Positions 19,052 to 31,800 of a stretch of DNA of 64,000 bases are shown here, piece by piece. Under the pieces are notes generated by a model. It did no database searches and was not told the origin of the DNA. It saw nothing but the letters and a program-made list of their open reading frames with translations. Numbering within the stretch: the first letter of the stretch is position 1; each line of letters starts with the position of its first letter. A program made the position numbers and the translations under genes. This DNA is from Tricharina praecox (taxonomy: Eukaryota), in contig NW_026250420.1 in the NCBI RefSeq assembly GCF_024521635.1, positions 558,001 to 622,000 of the forward strand. The letters are read 5' to 3'.

Positions 19052-22000
19052 CTACGAATAAAACGAAAAACTTGTCCGACCTATCGCATCCTCGCATTAG
19101 CCACCAACCAACCCATCAGAAAGAGAGCAACTTACAAAGCGGACAACTACTCGAATTGCTAGTCTTGAACCACTTGAGGAGACACGTGGAGTGGAATTTA
19201 TTCTTGCAGGTAGCGCAGGCGCGGTTCGGCAGGGAGCGGTCTGGGGTAACCGCTAGAATGCTGTAGCAGATGGCGCATTCGCTGACGCCCTGGAAGTGCA
19301 GCGACACGTTCTTGCGGAACAGTGTCAGGGCGTCGGTGATACTCCCGCTCTATTTTGTTGCGTGGGGGGTTAGTACTGGGGCGGGGGAAGGGGGGGGGAT
19401 GGGGATGGAGGGGGGGGAGGGCGTACTTGGAAGTTGACGACGGCCTGCGAGGCGAGGCGCATCTGCTTAAACTTGACCTCTGGCAATCCGACGCGGCGGA
19501 GTCCCTGGACCTCTACCTGGCGGAGGGGAAACAGTTTTGGCAGGCGGATGAGGATGTCCATCGCCTGGTCGTCGACGGGGTACGAGGCGACGACCTCGCG
19601 CGTGACTTTCGAGACCTTGACTTTCATGCCGTCTTCGTCGTCTTCGTCGCGGGTCGAGATCCACTCCGCGACCGAGGCGAGCTCTTGGTCGATCAGTAAA
19701 GGCGACATCCACTTCTCCGTGAACGCCTCGACTGCGAGAACAGTGCCGCGGTTGCGCGAGGTGTCGAGCCACCACGATTTGACGAGTGAGGGCGTACGGC
19801 TGAGCTGAAGGTAGTACAGGTGCGTGCAGAGCCAGCGGAGGTCGTGTAGAGGGTTTTCGGTCGTGTCGGCGGTGTAGGTTTGGATGGAGACTTTGGAGGC
19901 GTCGAAGGGGCGCGCGGGGGTGAAGATCGTGGTGGAGACGAAGTCCAGTAGTGGTGTCATGTATTGGCCTTCTTTGAGGGATTCCACGTAGATCGAGCGG
20001 ACCTTGAAGGATGCGTTCTCGAAGTGATCGAAGACGAGAATCCAGCTGAGCAGGTAACCGCGGATGGCGATCGGCATCTCGCGGGCGAACCCAATCTCCA
20101 TATCGTCTTCCAGTGACTCGGGGGCTTCAAGGATCATCGACAGGATCTCCGGTGGTAATTGTAGGCTCCCAGCCACATCGGCGGACAGCGCCGCGTCGAC
20201 GGACACTTGCTCCTGGGTGGTGGGAATATACCGATGGAGGATATCGAACGCCACTTTCTGAATCGGTCTGGACTGCGTGCCCAGCAGCGGGTACACCGCC
20301 CCAAAGTCGGGAACATGCGCAATATCCACATCTCTAAGCTGCCGTGCAATCTGCGTATTGACGATTCCCCTTGGCTGGTGCATCGCATCGGACCGTCCCG
20401 AGTTCTGCAGGAGAGTGATGAGCCGTGAATACAACCCAGCCTTATTCTCGGCCCACGCATCATCCAGATCATCGTTCTCGCCGACGAGTCCCTTAAGGAC
20501 TTGGAAAAGCCTCAATGTCGCAGACACCATCGGTAGATGCGGCTCCTCCAGGGGAACACAGATCTCCCAACACGACCCCACAAACTCCAGCGTGCTCTGC
20601 CAGTGCTCACCATACATGCTCTTGACGATGGGCAAGACGTGACACAGGACCTGCGCAATCTGACAGATGAGTCCCGGCGTAAGCTCAATGTCGTCATTCC
20701 CCTCGTCCAGCCACGAAAGCAGATGTCTGATCAGATTCATAGCCCTCGGTTGGGGGATATTCGGGGCTCCCTCGTCCGCGCTCGGCAGGGCAGCGTCAAG
20801 CATCACCAGCAGCTGCAATCCGCCCGTCGCAGCGTTCGCAGAGGAAACTCCCAGGAGCGTCCCGATAGTCCCCATGAACACGCGCTCCTTGCGCGCCGGC
20901 ATCAGGATCGTCGAGGAGCCCACTAGCATCGCTGTGGACAGGAAGACATCGCCATCCTTCCACACATCATTGCTGTCGACCCAGCTCACCGCCATCTCCC
21001 GGAACACCTGATCGCGCTCCGTTAGATCAGCCAGAACGATGGAAAGCGCACGGGCCGCGTAGAACGTGGCTGCATCGGCGCCGCGGCTGCGCTGCATCAA
21101 GCGCTCGACGAGTTTCTCGCGGGCCCCACCGGCCGCCAGAGCAGCCTGCGCCCAGTGCTGCGTCGCCGAGGTAAACACCAGCATTTCCGGCTCCATTTCG
21201 TGGTCCTTCCAAAGCTGATTTGCGCCGGCCACACTGAGGTTGTCCTTTGCCACCTCCTGGACCAGGAGGATGTAATACAGCAGTTGCGACTTCACCTCGT
21301 CGGCGATGACAAACCCCGCAAGCTCCTTGACCAGTTTCGTCGAAAACAGTGCCATCCGCAGAACCGTCGAGTAGCCCTCCGAATCCCAGAACGCCTCTCC
21401 GCCCTTCTCCGTAGCATCATCGCCCACGAGGAAAATAGCTCCACCCAGCGGATTTGAAATCGCCAGCGAAAGACTGTTCACCTTCCGAGGATGTGGTGCA
21501 ATAGCGCTCTCCCACTCCTCCTCCGAAAATAACAGCTTCGCTACGAGCATATCCGCCGTCTCCTTTGGCACACCCTTAACCAAGCTCGCAGCTTTAGCCG
21601 CAAGGTAGTCGATATCCAGATGCTCACTGGTCGGCTCCAGAACACTGTTGCAGATACTCCCCACCGTGATATCAGTCAGTCTCCCCACACCATCACTATC
21701 GACCGCGGCATCAATCGCACTGCGCAGTCGTGCCGCAGAGCTGCTTATAGCCCTATCCGGCGAGTTTGCCAGTACCAAAAGCTTCGATAACAGCTCCTTC
21801 CCGTGGTCGGAGTTGATGAACGGCATAAGTCTGTGAGGGTTTGTTCCGGCGACTGCGTCGAGCACCCGTGGTGCGTCGAGGTCCACGCCCTCCATGAGCT
21901 CGACCAATATCTTTGTCGTGGTGTCCTGCGTGATCACATTGCTAGTGGACCTCAACGTCTCCTTCACCAGTCTCCACGCGCCCGCAGCATGCTCCGGCAG

Positions 22001-24076
22001 CGCAGCCCGCATCTTGTTGACCACGTAACCGTCTAGCTCCTGCACCGGCCCGACTGAAGCAGCGGAGTTGAGCAACAGAACGATCGCATCCTCTTTCTTC
22101 TCCTTGGATAGCTCCGGCGACATCAAAACCGCTCGCACCGTCTTTTTCCACGCATCATCGAATCCATCTGGTGTTCCAGCACCGTAGGAAACGAATGCCG
22201 AGAGAAGCGACTCAATAGTATCGGGTGAAATTATCGCCACCAGCTTGTCCGAGAAGAAATCGTTGACGAGCTGCCGAGCAGAATCGTCAGACAGAATTTC
22301 CTTGCCGACTTTCGACAGCAGCGCTTCGAAAAACACCGCTGCACCTGTGGACTTGCCTAAAAAAACATGAGCGATGAACATCACGGTGGATGGATGGGAA
22401 AACCGGAAGATACCATTTGTAGCGACAAGAGACTTAATCAATTCACCAAGTATGACAACATTACTCTTCACCACCGTGGCGTAGACAGTGCCATCATTTG
22501 GCAGTGCCTTGAGCACGCCCACCACCAGCTTGACCCACGCCTCAGCACAGCGCTTGACCTTCACCTCCTGGTCCGCTCTGACGATGCCGACGACAAACAC
22601 CTCGACCTTCGCCCACATCTGGCCCAGCAGCATATCCGTGACGTCGGCGTTTGCGCGCTGCAGCCTGACGAGGCCACTTCCACACACGGCGGCGGCCACC
22701 GCGTCCTCCCTCGAGACGAAAGTGCGCTCGCCGTTATTCCCGCCGGCCAGGTACCCCGTATAAATCGGCAGTAGCAGCTCCTCGACAATATAAGTCTCGA
22801 GCTGCCGCATCTCGAGGAACCGCAAGCACACGTCCAAAAAGCAGCCCCACGCCGCCAAAATATGTGATCGCGGCTCCGGGCCAGCCTTGATCCCGGCGAG
22901 TACTGCGTTGGCCACGCTCTTCGCCGTCTTCTCACTGTCGGCCAGCACGTCCTCGGGGATGACCCTTACGACCGCCGTCAGCTGCTCCCAGTAACTCGGC
23001 GGGGCGGAATGGCTGCCGAGCTCGACGAACGCCAGGAGCTGCGCCAGCGGCGGCGACTTCTTCTTCGCCTTGGCGACGGTCCAGCACTCGGGAAAGTGTT
23101 TCGTCAGCGCCTCCAGCGCCTCCATGTAGACGCCCGCACTGCCGGCCTGGCTCTTCAGCGCCGCCGCCTTGACCACCACCGCCGTCGCGATCATGTCCAA
23201 ATTGTCTCGCACCAACTCAGGCCGCTTCTCCAGCGCCGCCAGGAGCAGCTGAAACACCGCCCTCCTCAAAAACGCATCAGTATGAAACGCGGCCATCCAA
23301 AGCCTTTTCTCCTTCAGAAACTCCGCAAACCCGTCCACCTCCCCCTCCCCCTCCCCCACCCCCTCCCCCTCACGCAGCATCCTCGCCACAGCCAAGATAC
23401 ACACAGCCGTAGTCCTAGCCCACTTCGCCTCCGCATCCTCGCTATTGCACCAGCGCTCATCACTCAGCGTCCACACCTCCTCCCTCGCCACCGTTTCTGT
23501 ACAAAACGCCAGCACCACTTTCCCAAAAACCGTCCACGCGCTTCTCACCTTCTCCGGTGTCCTAAACACGCTCTCTGCAGCATCGCTCGCCGCCCTCGCC
23601 GCAGCCCGATCATTATCGAACGTGCCGCACAGCCACGGCCCCACGAGTGCGGACATATGCCGTGCCAGCCGCCGTCCCGCCGCGCTGCCCACCGCTCCAA
23701 GCACCGAAAAACTCAGCCGGCGGACCCGCGGAGACGCGTCGATGCACAGCGGAGGGAAGAGCCGCGTCCATGCGCTCAGAACGCCCTCTTCGACGACCGC
23801 GGAGGAGGAGGAAGCGCTGAGCTTGTCGAGGAGCCCCTCGAGCGCTTTGACGCGCGTTACTTCCTCGCGCTTGCTGAGGGACTTGAAGAGCACTGTCAGC
23901 GTCGGGTCCGAGATCGCGGATAGGTCCGGCGGCGCGGTGATGGTGGAGAGCGCTGAGGGGGCGGTGGTGAACATTGCTGCGGTTGCTGCGGCTGCTGTGG
24001 TGGGTGTGCGTGTGCGTGTTGGTGGCGGGAATGGCGGCGGGAAGGTCGTTGTAGTTGATGGCTGCTTTTTGCTCAT
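19052..24076 (-). CDS. RKR1: Listerin E3 ubiquitin ligase of ribosome-associated quality control
   Basis: N-terminal PPDLSAISDPTLTVLFKSLSKREEVTRVKALE, HEAT-like body, RWD-like region, C-terminal RING HFQGVSECAICYSIL...[29 protein letters not shown]. Introns 22413-22357, 19426-19350, 19135-19081. Start taken as MSKK (24076); an upstream in-frame ATG is at 24151. Confidence 0.95.
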
Positions 24077-24747
24077 CGCCTCGCTGCTGCTGCGGGCGAG
24101 TGTGATGAAATCGATCGAAGATGGGTGATGGTGAGTCGAAGGTACATGCACACTCCAGTCGACTGTAGCAATGACGCAGAGTATTAAGTTGTCCGCCCCG
24201 CAACCCCACTACATGTAATTATAGCTCGGTGGACGCATCTACCCTAGTACGAGCTAGATACAGTCGCACGAAGCCGCTGTCGCCTAGCCTTTGTGTGTAT
24301 CCGGCCCCGACGTCCGCATTCAATGGCGTCAACGAGGACAGAAAGTACGGGCCACATATTCAATTCGACCATGATAGTTGCGACAGAGCGCATTTTGACA
24401 CGTAAAGATAGAGGAAATCCATTTTGAAAAAGTGTGAAGTGACAAGAGACAGAAAACACCACCGTGAGCACCGAATAAAGCCAAAGAAAAAAAGTAAACC
24501 AGGTACATCAGGTTACGGAGAAGTACGGATCAAAGAGGTTGTACAAGCTTTGCGCACAAAAGATAGAGAAATGGGAAAAAGAAACAGAAAATGGAGTGCA
24601 CCAGTACAGGAACACCCATATCAGAACCAGGAAGAATTAGATCCACCTGTCCCAACTGCAAATTCCTCCAATTCTTACCAGGTCAACTATCTTACGGACA
24701 TGCGTGCACCTTCACACCTGTGGCATAAACTCGTGAGAGAACGTCAC

Positions 24748-26175
24748 TTATGAGAGAAGGGGCTCGTTAACGTGCGGCTCATGAGAAGGAACGGCGGGGT
24801 AGTCGTGGACGACTTCGCTATCCTTGCTCAGATACTCGTGGGCGGAGGTGGTAGAGGGAGCCTCGGGCTTCTTGGAGGTCGATTTGGTGTAGGTCTGAAC
24901 CTTGGACTGGAGGTCGGCAGCAGTGGCCTTGGCGCGAACGGCAGCTTCCTCAGCGTACTTTCCGGTGAGCTTCTTGGTGGTCTCGACCTGGGAGTTGACC
25001 ATGTCGGAAACGCGCTGGATCTGCTCATCGATCAACTCCTTATTGTTGATGTAGATGAGCGGCGCAGTGAAGGCAGTAACGGTAGCTAGTAGAACCGTGG
25101 TTAGCAGCTATACCCACGCGTATACCACGAGGGCAACCTACCTAGAAGAAGCAGAGTCCAGAATGGAATGTACTTGATCAGGATGTAGCCGAAGAACGAA
25201 GAGACAAAGGCCTGACAGAATTAGCAATCTCGATGGCATTTCTAGCAGAAGAAGAGCGACATACAGCAATGGTAGTAAAAATGTTCTCGACGAACAGCAC
25301 GCGCTGGAACTCCAAGACGAAAAAGTTGGTCAAGTCATGAAGGTTCTCAAAGAACATCTCGAGCGACTCCCGCGGGACGGTATAGTAACGAGTCGGGCGC
25401 ATCGACGAGACGATTCCCTTAGCCCCAAGGGGCTTCCCGGCGAGCTCGAGCACGGAAGCAGCTACGACAGTCAGCATACACCGATCACAAAACGCAGCAA
25501 ACAGGGAAATCCTCACCCGCAAAGAGCATGTACGCAGCCTTGAAAACGTAGCGCAGGACATTAACATAGCGGAACGCGAAGATCAACGAAATGGTTGAGA
25601 AAAAGAAGAACCCGGTAGCCTTGGGGGATTTCCACTAGACGGTGGTGACATCATATCAGCATATTGTTACGTCGTTTACTCACGACCCTTATCTCTCGCC
25701 TCGGCAACCACAATCCACCAAAGACCAGACCGCACCATACGGAAAAAAAAAGAAAGAGAAGAGAAGAGAACACGAACCGTGAAGAGATCGTAAAACAAGC
25801 TGTGGAAGTGAGACATCGGCTGCTGCTGCTGCTGACCGTCCTGGTAATCTCCACGACCGGATCCCGCGAGTCCTTTGAAATCCGACTTCGTATCCTGGAT
25901 GACCGGGTGCGATCCTGGGGACATGTCAGTATTGAAGATTCTCCCTTGCACGTGCACAATCGGAGGAGCAGGTTGTTGTTCTCGTAGGGAAGTGGAGGGG
26001 TCTATCGACAGTCGACGTCAGTATACATTTTTTTATCGTGAGTCGCGGAGAGCACGGGTGTTGCAGCGACGGAGAAACACTTTCGACTCACCTCACCGTT
26101 CACGATCTGCTCAGCCGCGGAACCGTTGCCGTGGCTTGTCTCCTGGTTGCTGTAGTAGTGGGTGCTATCGGCCAT
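24748..26175 (-). CDS. RTN1: Reticulon-like ER-shaping protein
   Basis: Six exons give ...PMSHFHSLFYDLFT-WKSPKATG...RPTRYYTVPRESLE..NFFVLEFQRVLFVEN...AFTAPLIYINNKELIDEQI, a fungal reticulon domain with two long hydrophobic segments. Confidence 0.9.
25915..26096 (-). other. Donor-disrupted [D5,6] spliceosomal twin intron (stwintron), first intervening sequence of the reticulon gene
   Basis: Minus strand reads AACG|GTGAG[GTGAGT...TACTGAC...TAG]A...TACTGAC...CAG|GATCG: two donors 5 nt apart, two identical branch points, two acceptors; internal intron 90 nt, external 92 nt. Confidence 0.8.
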
Positions 26176-27286
26176 GGTGGGCAAAGTGCAGGGCGATAAG
26201 GAGAATGGGTTGTTGTGTTTGTGTATGTAGGAGGGTGATAGTAGAGGTAGGAAGGGGACGAAGCTGTTTGTAGAGGGTAGAAGTAGGAGTTCAGTTCAGT
26301 CTGGTGAAAAAGAAGAGAGAAGAGAAGAGAGGAAGAAGGAAAGAAGGAAGGAAGGGGGGGCGAAGTGATGTGATGTGAGTGTGTTATCGAGACCTGACTT
26401 GCTGGCCGGGATGGTGGGGGGGGGGGGGGCTTGCGTGTGAGTGTAACTCGCAAGTAAGTACAACTTTTCTAGTCCGCACTCTTGGAGAGAAGTGGCTTTG
26501 CTTTGCATTACTTTCGCACTCCCTCCGATCGATGATCGCACACACGGGTGACACAGTACTGCGCTACATACAACTCGCATCTCCAGCGGCTGGATTTCAA
26601 GGGAGCGAGGAGATATCCATCATTCTCCTGCATACGGCTAGTGCGGGTGCTGCTGAAACTGGACGTCACCTCGCCATCAGAGCGAGCAGATTGAAGAGAG
26701 AAAAAAAAACTCAGCACCCAACATGCAACATGCGACATGCGGCGGCATCATCATTACATGTGATAATATGCACTATCCCCCCATCACCCGTTTGGGTAAC
26801 TAGCTCCCAACGCGTCACCATGGGCAAGGCAAGGCAAGAGCAGAACCTCGCTGGAAAGGGAGGGACGGTAAGGCCTGGGTGGAAGCTGGGCTGATCGTGA
26901 CTACTTCTTATCGGAACCTGCGCTCTCGTCTGCAAAGACGAGGGCAAGGCACGGCAGGGCGGGCGAGCATCTCATCGCTGTCGCCTGCGAGCGAGCGAGC
27001 GAGCGCGCGGAACGGGTTCTCTTGCCTTAGCTCTGAAGAAACCCTGCACGTGCGTGTGCCAAGGCAGGCGTAGCGAGTGATGTCGCGTGACACGTGTGAC
27101 GGAACCGTCTTGGGTTTCACTGACCTCACCCTTGTGGATGGGCTGGCGAGCACTTTGGAAGATACGATGATTTGACTGCACTTCAATTGCCTAGCAAACA
27201 TCGATACAGGACGAGCAAGACAAGCACGAACGAAACCACAGCCCTCCATCCCATCCCACCCCGCCCCATTACCATCCTACTTCAGC

Positions 27287-28894: not shown

Positions 28895-31800
28895 TTAAAC
28901 CGTAGGAATGCCCTCGATGCAAGCCCTAGCACCGCGTCCCTTCTCCTCAAAAACAACAATCATCCTTTCCGCCCTCTCGTTCAACCGGCGTTCCGCGTTT
29001 GCCGCGTTCCACTTCACCCACTCTTCGACCGTCATGTCCCGCTCGGCAGCGGTCAAGCCGGCCTCGTCCACTTCCGCCCCGGGGTGCGACGCAAACACGA
29101 CATCCAGGTCGATGGGATTCCATGGGTGCGAAGTCTGCACTGTCCGCGATGGCTTCGCCTTCGGCGTGCTCTGGAGGGGCACCATCATCTGTCTGCGAAC
29201 CGGGGAGAGCGGTGCACGGGGCTGCTCGACCGGATCCGGTGAATTTGTCGGCTCGCGGTGCAGGGAGCTCGCAACAACAACCTCAGGTTCCTCCTCCTCC
29301 TCCTCCGCCGCCGGCAGTTCCCGCTCATCGCTTGGGTGGTCAATCTCCATCTCGTGAACCTCCGGAGACTCCGATCTAGGCGCAGTGTGCTCCACGAACG
29401 GCGAACTATGCGTCAGTGATGTGGCGTGTTCCTTAGCGTCACTTTCGCGTTCGTACTCGGATGGGGTAGAGTGGCGTAGATGCTTTTGCGGACTGGCCTT
29501 GCGTGGGCTGGCCTTCCGTGGGCTGTCCATTTGTGGAGTGACCTTCTGCGGACTGGCCTTGCGTGCACTCTTACGCACCGATTGTTGCGGCGGCGGCGGC
29601 GACGGCTCGGGCTCAGTCTCAAGCTCGGGCTCGGGCTCGGGCTCGGTGGCGTGCTCTTCGTCCTCAGTCGCATCAGGATCTCCCTCTACAAACAACGTAC
29701 CGGCGCCGAAGGACTCACGAACTTCGACAACGTGGCGGACCACGCTGCCAGATTCTGATAACTCTTCCTCCACAACAACCTCTTCCATTGGAACTTCCGG
29801 AACATGTTCCTCCTGGGTTTGATACCGCTGGTACGGGTGCTCATCGGGAACAGTTGACGCCGCGTCAGGAATGGTCGAAACTGGGGAGGCCATACTTTCG
29901 CGTTGCGGCTGCTGCGGCTGCTGCTTTGTGTTTACGCGTTTAGGCTTCTCGGCTTGTTTGGGCTCCGGCTTCGGGAAGACAGTTATCGCGACCTCTTCTT
30001 CATACTCCTCCACCTTCACTGGCGTCGGCACTGCCGGTTCAATGGGGTTGGCCTGGCTGTCGACGGTATTGCTTCTGCTCCTAACAGTGCCCTTCTTCTT
30101 GGAGACCTTCGTGCGCTTGGTGGGTTTGGGATCTTCATCGTCAGTGCCGGCTATCTTTTTAGACTTCGTCCGGCCCTTCCTCGGGACAGGCGGTGGGGAC
30201 GGCTCTGGTTCTGATTCGGCAGGCGTATCGTCATTTTGATCGAGGATTTCGACGTCCTGGTTGAGATGTCTCGGCACCGAGATTGGCATCGAGTAGTCTA
30301 GTCCTCCATCCCTAAAGAAAGACTTCATAGGGGTCTTCGTTGGCGCTGCACTGCCGCTTCGAGACCCCGCTTTGCTCTTTCCCCTGACTGCCGCAGGGAT
30401 GAGAATATCGCGGGGAGCATTCCTCATGGATTGTTCAACCGCAAGACTGGTTCTGGACCTGGTCACTTTCTTAGTGCTACGGACGAAGGGCTTTTGGTGC
30501 GCTGCATTGTCCTCGTCGTCCGTGAAGGGGTGTTCGTGGTCAAGCGCATCATTGAAGTCGTCACTTGGAGCTGCGTAGATCCTGTTCTTAGCAGGGGTTT
30601 TCGTTGGTTTCGAGACGACCCGGTGGTTCTTCTTTGGCTTGACCTCTACAGAGTCTTCCGCGTCCGTAAGCGATGTCTCGTTGCCGGGTGCGGGCTGCCG
30701 CGCGATGCTAGCACGGGTAGTTCGCTGCCTCTTCGGCGGGTCGGCAATGATATCGAGGACGGGCTGTTTGGCTATGCTGGCTCTGGTGGCTCTCTTCTTG
30801 GGCTGCACGACGATCTCTTCATCTGACCCCGATTCCGTGTCGATTCCGCCATCGAACATGATCACCGGCTCCTTAGACATGATGCTACTCGACCGCTTGC
30901 GTCCCCTTTTCGGAGCTTCATCCACATCCGATACTGAATTGGTAGATGTTGCGTATTCTGGGACAGCCTTCTTGCGCCCGCCTTTCTTCGCGGCGGCAGC
31001 CTTTGGCTTCACGGAACCGGCTCTCTTTCCCCTCGCTGGCTTCGTCTCCTCATCGTCCATGCTGTCGACCGAGTCTCGAAGCGAACGTCCACGTTCGACT
31101 GGAGGTTCCGGTGGTACAGCCGAGTTCGCCCGGGATGCGCGTCTTGTGGCCGGCTTCTTGGGTACGGTCGAAGTCCGTGGTGCGCGCTTCGCCGGCTTGA
31201 GCGATTCTGTCTCGAAGAAATAGCATTGGGGCTTGCGCCGGTAGTGCTCGTCTCTGCAACCAACTATGAGTCTCGGGACATGGCGATAATGTAGAGGCAT
31301 GCATACCTTGGAACATCTTCAGGTTCGAAATTGGCCAATGAAATACCGCAGAATGGGCAGATGCAGTTGTCGATTTCACCCTTCGTAGGAGCGTAGTGGA
31401 AACCGGCACCAGCCATCTAGTAGGAGCACCATCAGTCAGTACTAGCCCGGGCGCGGGTACAGAACAGTAAGGTATGCGTACATTCATCACGCTCAAATTG
31501 TCGGTATCGGGGTGAGGCCACATGCCTTCCCCGAACGTCTGCAGCCGGCCCAGCGCAAATTGATCACTGTGCGGATTGCACGTGAAGTCCTGCCCCTGGC
31601 TCTCCTGAATCTCGGCAGTGATCGCCCATCCACAGTCGGGGGAGTGGCGGTAATGCTCGGAGACGGGATTATCACCGGGCTCCCACCCATCCAGCGACTT
31701 CGAGCAGAGGAAGCAGGTCACATTGTCGTCATGGCCGGGCGTTGGATCGAAGTAGAATCCTGCGTCCGCATACTACCGCGGGTCAGCACGCAACGCACGG

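Follow-up and report, generated by a model that had tools for sequence, protein, structure and literature searches.

What does the 182-nt first intervening sequence of a reticulon-like gene in Tricharina praecox (Pezizomycetes, Pezizales, Pyronemataceae) consist of: a single intron, or one intron nested within the donor of another? And if it is nested, in which order do the two units leave the transcript, and is the arrangement new? The gene lies on the minus strand of the DNA analysed here, a stretch of 64,000 nucleotides from contig NW_026250420.1 (the window). According to Kavalecz et al. (2019), a stwintron in the strict sense is an intervening sequence whose external intron is removable only after the internal one (PMC6616335). 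We hold with good, though not full, confidence that the element is the T. praecox orthologue of the rtnA [D5,6] stwintron, in which a 90-nt U2 intron sits inside a 92-nt U2 intron, and that its removal likely takes two steps.

The reticulon-like gene and its exon structure

The six-exon model of the gene encodes a protein of 312 amino acids. Matches to the Reticulon profile (PF02453) run collinearly over three exons, covering profile positions 7-46, 61-107 and 133-156 with 28.6, 27.7 and 17.5 bits, respectively. Each of these single-exon scores lies below the 31.8-bit cut-off, and the identical full-length protein P0001 carries PF02453 as a precomputed assignment. When exon 4 was searched against proteins, 15 of 36 candidates reached E <= 0.001, and each of the 15 had a precomputed PF02453 assignment. 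The best match was P0001, a 312-residue 'Reticulon-domain-containing protein [Tricharina praecox]' with 100% identity over the query, which equals the gene model residue for residue. The deposited model handles the 182 nt as one intron, and it gives the right protein.

Nine RNA runs contain parts of this gene, four of which (X1 to X4) were examined as contigs only, over positions 24500-26350. The features of the gene, from its 5' to its 3' end, are as follows.

26097..26175, minus strand: coding part of exon 1, from the ATG to AAC-G, ending in phase 1 (gene model; translation identical to P0001; RNA contigs reach 26304)
26092..26096, minus strand: donor stub GTGAG, the first 5 nt of the external intron (sequence; the mature joint removes from 26096)
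26002..26091, minus strand: predicted internal intron, 90 nt, with GTGAGT at 26091-26086, TACTGAC at 26023-26017 and TAG at 26004-26002 (sequence; same arrangement in relatives)
25915..26001, minus strand: 3' part of the external intron, 87 nt, whose initial A completes GTGAG/A, with TACTGAC at 25931-25925 and CAG at 25917-25915 (sequence; the mature joint ends at 25915)
25778..25914, minus strand: exon 2, 137 nt, N-terminal extension of the protein (gene model, RNA contigs)
25635..25777, minus strand: intron 2, 143 nt, phase 0, donor GTTCGT (gene model; in X1, X2 and X3, contig pieces pass from 25635 to 25781, separated by 2 record letters)
25517..25634, minus strand: exon 3, start of the reticulon domain (PF02453 profile positions 7-46, 28.6 bits)
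25462..25516, minus strand: intron 3, 55 nt, donor GTGAGG (gene model; 55-nt skip in X1 to X4)
25265..25461, minus strand: exon 4, reticulon domain (PF02453 profile positions 61-107, 27.7 bits)
25212..25264, minus strand: intron 4, 53 nt (gene model; joint in X1, X2 and X3)
25142..25211, minus strand: exon 5, 70 nt (gene model)
25086..25141, minus strand: intron 5, 56 nt (gene model; joint in X1 and X2, shifted by 2 in X4)
24748..25085, minus strand: exon 6 with the stop codon at 24750-24748 (gene model, PF02453, RNA contigs)

Intron 2, at 143 nt, far exceeds introns 3-5 (53-56 nt) and has the non-consensus donor GTTCGT; within it are a CT-rich stretch and, at 25683-25678, a GTGAGT. It was considered as a second nested intron and is not read as such, because one metagenome relative (L027) has a plain 60-nt intron at that place, with the same GTTCGT donor. 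Skipping of exon 2, as in A. niger and N. crassa, was rejected as well: loss of its 137 nt would shift the frame, and no such joint is listed in the RNA contigs.

Two further observations concern the flanks of the coding region. Upstream of the start codon, positions 26290-26420 (minus strand) hold a stretch of consecutive C and an extended CT-rich tract, and the reach of the RNA contigs gives a transcribed 5' leader of at least 129 nt. The downstream neighbour (19373-24208, minus strand) is a single long open frame of 1612 residues with the domains of the listerin (LTN1) E3 ligase (PF22958, PF22999, PF23009 and PF23280).

Architecture and net excision of the 182 nt

The first intervening sequence (26096-25915, minus strand) interrupts the reticulon-like gene in phase 1. 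Elements extracted by script give lengths of 90 nt for the inner unit, 92 nt for the outer unit (5 + 87) and 182 nt in total, and reading of the minus strand places the branch A of the internal unit at 26018 and that of the external unit at 25926. An internal U2 intron is inserted between nucleotides 5 and 6 of the external donor, each unit having its own donor, branch element and acceptor, which is the [D5,6] type of nesting. The two units separate coding sequences, and the frame is restored once both are removed. Translation of the gene model distinguishes the possible products. Removal of the inner unit joins the A at 26001 to GTGAG and yields the donor GTGAGA; if splicing stopped there, the product would carry a frameshift followed by a stop. 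A 177-nt excision, from the inner donor to the distal acceptor, would likewise lead to a frameshift and then a stop, and removal of all 182 nt restores the frame and reads ..IVNGSHPVIQD..

This structure had been proposed in a first-pass annotation made from the letters of the window. When the minus strand was re-read and the elements were re-extracted by script, all of its coordinates and lengths were correct. Translation bore out that removal of the inner unit alone is out of frame but rebuilds GTGAG+A, and that full removal is in frame. Its structural reading is right: the reticulon-like gene has, as its first intervening sequence, a nested intron of the [D5,6] type.

The same stretch might nevertheless leave in one step, with all 182 nt removed mainly from GTGAGG to the distal branch site and CAG, and with the inner signals little used or serving as an alternative; we regard this as distinctly unlikely. 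Before any splicing, the upstream donor reads GTGAGG, and the identical hexamer works as the RNA-confirmed donor of intron 3 in the same gene; the upstream donor is thus not visibly disabled, which leaves some doubt whether the strict definition of a stwintron applies here, and one-step removal also agrees with the deposited protein model, which treats the 182 nt as one intron. On the other side, the inner donor only 5 nt downstream fits the donor consensus better, with AG at -2/-1 and T at +6, the consensus being taken in part from pairing with U1. The first acceptor is 90 nt from the inner donor, near the size of the short introns of this gene (53-56 nt, three of four).

The RNA contigs bear on the net result of splicing. 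In X1 and X2, contigs join directly across the 182 nt (25913 to 26096, with the cut at +1; bases 25915-26096 removed); in X3 and X4 they break off at 26096, and their loose ends, 13 and 10 letters long, continue into exon 2. Contigs of all four runs thus support the mature junction predicted by the first-pass annotation. The 55-, 53- and 56-nt introns are also contig joints, and pieces of X1, X2 and X3 bridge the 143-nt intron. Net excision of the 182 nt and the gene model are therefore both supported.

That the mature junction alone is seen in the contigs would suit one-step removal. Among the X1 to X4 contigs, which drop rare forms, no 90-, 95- or 177-nt joint is listed, and neither an intermediate nor an unspliced form appears; because rare forms are dropped, the lack of an intermediate there does not count against the nested model either. 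A protein search with the frame that an intermediate would encode (25780-26001, minus strand) gave three candidates, none at E <= 0.001, and a retained outer intron after the Asn-Gly codon was found in none of the 11 transcript-like metagenome contigs described below.

The RNA contigs also bear on whether the 87 nt at 26001-25915 form an alternative coding extension of exon 2. In that case a 95-nt intron would run from GTGAGG to the TAG at 26002, and the protein would gain an in-frame insertion of 29 residues. The reticulon frame does stay open from 26017 to the end of exon 2 (ORF 25676-26017); however, 29 open codons are not unusual in GC-rich DNA, by our estimate. Contig depth is zero across bins 25926-26049 in all four runs, contigs being assemblies that drop rare forms, so the interior of the putative extension has no contig cover. 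In the closest relatives, the matching stretch is 88 nt (L013) and 85 nt (L025) long, and is therefore out of frame. A coding extension is accordingly the least probable of the readings considered here, close to negligible.

Recurrence of the tandem donor

The published search motif for [D5,6] stwintrons, GTRWGGTRWGH(25,120)DYTRAY(4,24)HAGH(25,120)DYTRAY(4,24)HAG (PMC6616335), was applied as a regular expression to both strands of the 64-kb window and matched once, at 26096 on the minus strand. A control with 200 size-matched Markov-1 random sequences gave a mean of 0.04 matches to the full motif, 4 in 100 having one match. The tandem-donor 11-mer alone occurs 6 times in the window vs 0.98 expected. 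The five other GTRWG-GTRWGH 11-mers are located at 31467(+), 50361(+), 63538(+), 52055(-) and 20615(-), the last of them within the listerin coding frame of the neighbouring gene; none of the five passes the full motif. When the tandem donor and the real outer 3' signals were held fixed and the interior was shuffled, 419 of 2000 shuffles still yielded a legal internal parse (branch element, acceptor and H). Taken alone in a single sequence, the internal 3' signals are therefore weak evidence, and at the level of sequence the weight of the case is borne by the tandem donor and its conservation in relatives.

To survey such relatives, 13 of the 15 homologues were aligned (P0009 and P0010, both about 250 aa, were left out) and used for one metagenome scan. 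It produced 309 pattern matches and 29 confirmed loci, 11 of which look like spliced transcripts (L001-L009, L012 and L021) and 18 of which are genomic. One genomic locus, L015, has too little upstream DNA, leaving 17 assessable loci. The first-pass annotation had proposed that orthologues be aligned in search of the double donor. In the metagenome comparison, 16 of the 17 loci carry a 5-nt GTNNG stub and a directly adjoining second GT donor, at the same AAY-G (Asn-Gly) codon. In each of these 16 loci, an internal branch element with its acceptor is followed by a second such pair. Parsing by script places A or T directly behind the internal acceptor in 15 of the 16; in the remaining locus, L023, the script picked an AAG acceptor followed by C, and by eye GGCTAAC..TTTAG/T is the better parse. 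Under the relaxed donor pattern, which is of our own making and uses lazy matching, the inner units span 48-90 nt and the outer units 61-93 nt across the relatives, and the other sequence differs.

Many of the 16 loci are near-duplicates, and they fall into about five sequence-distinct groups: the window with L013 and L025; L027 and L028; the Tuber-like L010, L011, L026 and L029; L014, L016-L020 and L022; and L023. Aligned with L013, L025 and L027, the window shares with them the tandem donor, the internal CTGAC/CTAAC, the [CT]AG-A and the outer signals. The strict published motif is passed by 3 of the 16 relatives only (L013, L027 and L028), the others needing relaxed donors. When the donors are unconstrained, the published 3' elements are matched by 7 of 10 distinct sequences, counting the window and 9 loci, and L016, L020 and L023 fail. 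In the one assessable locus of a different kind, L024 (positions 2500-2720), there is no intron at the Asn-Gly codon; the following intron, preceding W-K-Y-P, does occur there, with the donor GTAAGT. The transcript contigs L003-L005 resemble the L024 lineage.

These data weigh on two of the alternatives. The inner signals could be a chance look-alike in an ordinary long intron, with no role in splicing: about a fifth of shuffled interiors yield a legal internal parse, and the tandem-donor 11-mer stands at five other places in the window, although none of these passes the full motif. Yet the full motif, for which 0.04 matches per window are expected by chance, falls exactly at the published orthologous position, and about five sequence-distinct groups of relatives have the arrangement at this same codon, which makes coincidence very improbable. 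As for removal of all 182 nt in one step, 16 of the 17 relatives retain both the tandem donor and the internal 3' signals despite sequence divergence, and signals that went unused would be hard to reconcile with such retention.

Splicing order and the published reticulon stwintrons

The first-pass annotation stated that donor-disrupted stwintrons had been described in the first intron of Aspergillus reticulon-like genes, and this literature does exist (PMC6616335). In A. nidulans rtnA (AN5404), the [D5,6] stwintron is the first intervening sequence, with an internal intron of 75 nt and an external intron of 76 nt, and its splicing intermediate was cloned (PMC6616335). Kavalecz et al. mined 754 rtnA orthologues and report the stwintron in almost all genome-sequenced Pezizomycotina, naming Pezizomycetes and Orbiliomycetes among them, with the internal intron missing in <3% of species; they present it as the oldest known stwintron (PMC6616335). 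Splicing intermediates were detected by RT-PCR in five species of four classes, experimental confirmation being given for A. niger, Botrytis cinerea, Trichoderma reesei, Neurospora crassa and Helminthosporium solani (PMC6616335). In the Tuber melanosporum EST FP417649, the internal intron alone is absent, Tuber being a Pezizomycete (PMC6616335).

Given this published distribution, which includes Pezizomycetes, the T. praecox element is an orthologous copy of the rtnA stwintron and is not new, and as an instance it adds little to what has been published. The suggestion of the first-pass annotation that it would extend the structure to a distant lineage did not hold, T. praecox belonging to a class already covered with the Tuber EST (PMC6616335). 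A literature search of main texts found none that names Tricharina and stwintrons together.

The two-step splicing that the first-pass annotation put forward for this gene is probable in T. praecox, and would run from the inside out. By intron definition, the spliceosome would first pair the strong inner donor GAG/GTGAGT with the nearest TACTGAC..TAG, and excision of the inner unit would join GTGAG to A. The rebuilt GTGAGA would then pair with the second TACTGAC..CAG, joining AAC-G to GA-TCG in frame. We infer this order here because the orthologues tested elsewhere are homologous; intermediates were reported in every rtnA orthologue tested (PMC6616335), which also argues against removal of the 182 nt mainly in one step.

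For the Lipomyces starkeyi reticulon-like gene, by contrast, the complex intervening sequence is reported to leave by either a one-step or a two-step route (PMC7138796), a precedent that lends some support to one-step removal. It also suggests a variant of the nested reading, in which the upstream GTGAGG is already active before the inner unit is removed, so that the nested intron is optional and leaves in one or two steps as in L. starkeyi. We considered such early activity because intron 3 of the same gene uses GTGAGG, and we judge it unlikely. If it were true, the old rtnA stwintron of Pezizomycotina would be an optional rather than an obligatory nested intron in at least some lineages. Whether a [D5,6] donor with G at +6 is really disabled could be asked cleanly in this window, since an identical hexamer serves as a donor 580 nt further along the transcript.

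To return to the preferred reading, an orthologous stwintron likely spliced from the inside out, the T. praecox element resembles that of A. nidulans rtnA in its PF02453 family, its place as the first intervening sequence, its phase 1, the N-terminal extension of the protein and the nesting between donor nucleotides 5 and 6 (PMC6616335). The two differ in unit lengths (90 + 92 nt in T. praecox vs 75 + 76 nt in A. nidulans) and in the rebuilt donor, which ends in A in T. praecox and in U in A. nidulans; moreover, T. praecox is without the small exon II of A. nidulans, its next intron lying 137 nt downstream in phase 0. For Pezizomycetes and Orbiliomycetes, an additional intron is described 70 nt 3' of the sixth A. 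nidulans position, a spacing that the 70-nt exon 5 fits (PMC6616335). Tuber melanosporum, whose rtnA carries the stwintron, is of the same class as T. praecox, and the Tuber-like metagenome loci share the arrangement and the codon. However, their inner donor is GTTAGT and their rebuilt donor ends in T, compared to GTGAGT and A in the window. A more remote counterpart is the reticulon-like gene of Lipomyces, for which Ag et al. (2020) describe [D4,5], [D6,7] and [D7,8] stwintrons (PMC7138796). Like the T. praecox element, these nested introns occupy the most 5' intron position of a reticulon-like gene, in phase 1; Lipomyces nevertheless belongs to a different subphylum, and its stwintrons have other nesting points and are considered to have formed independently (PMC7138796).
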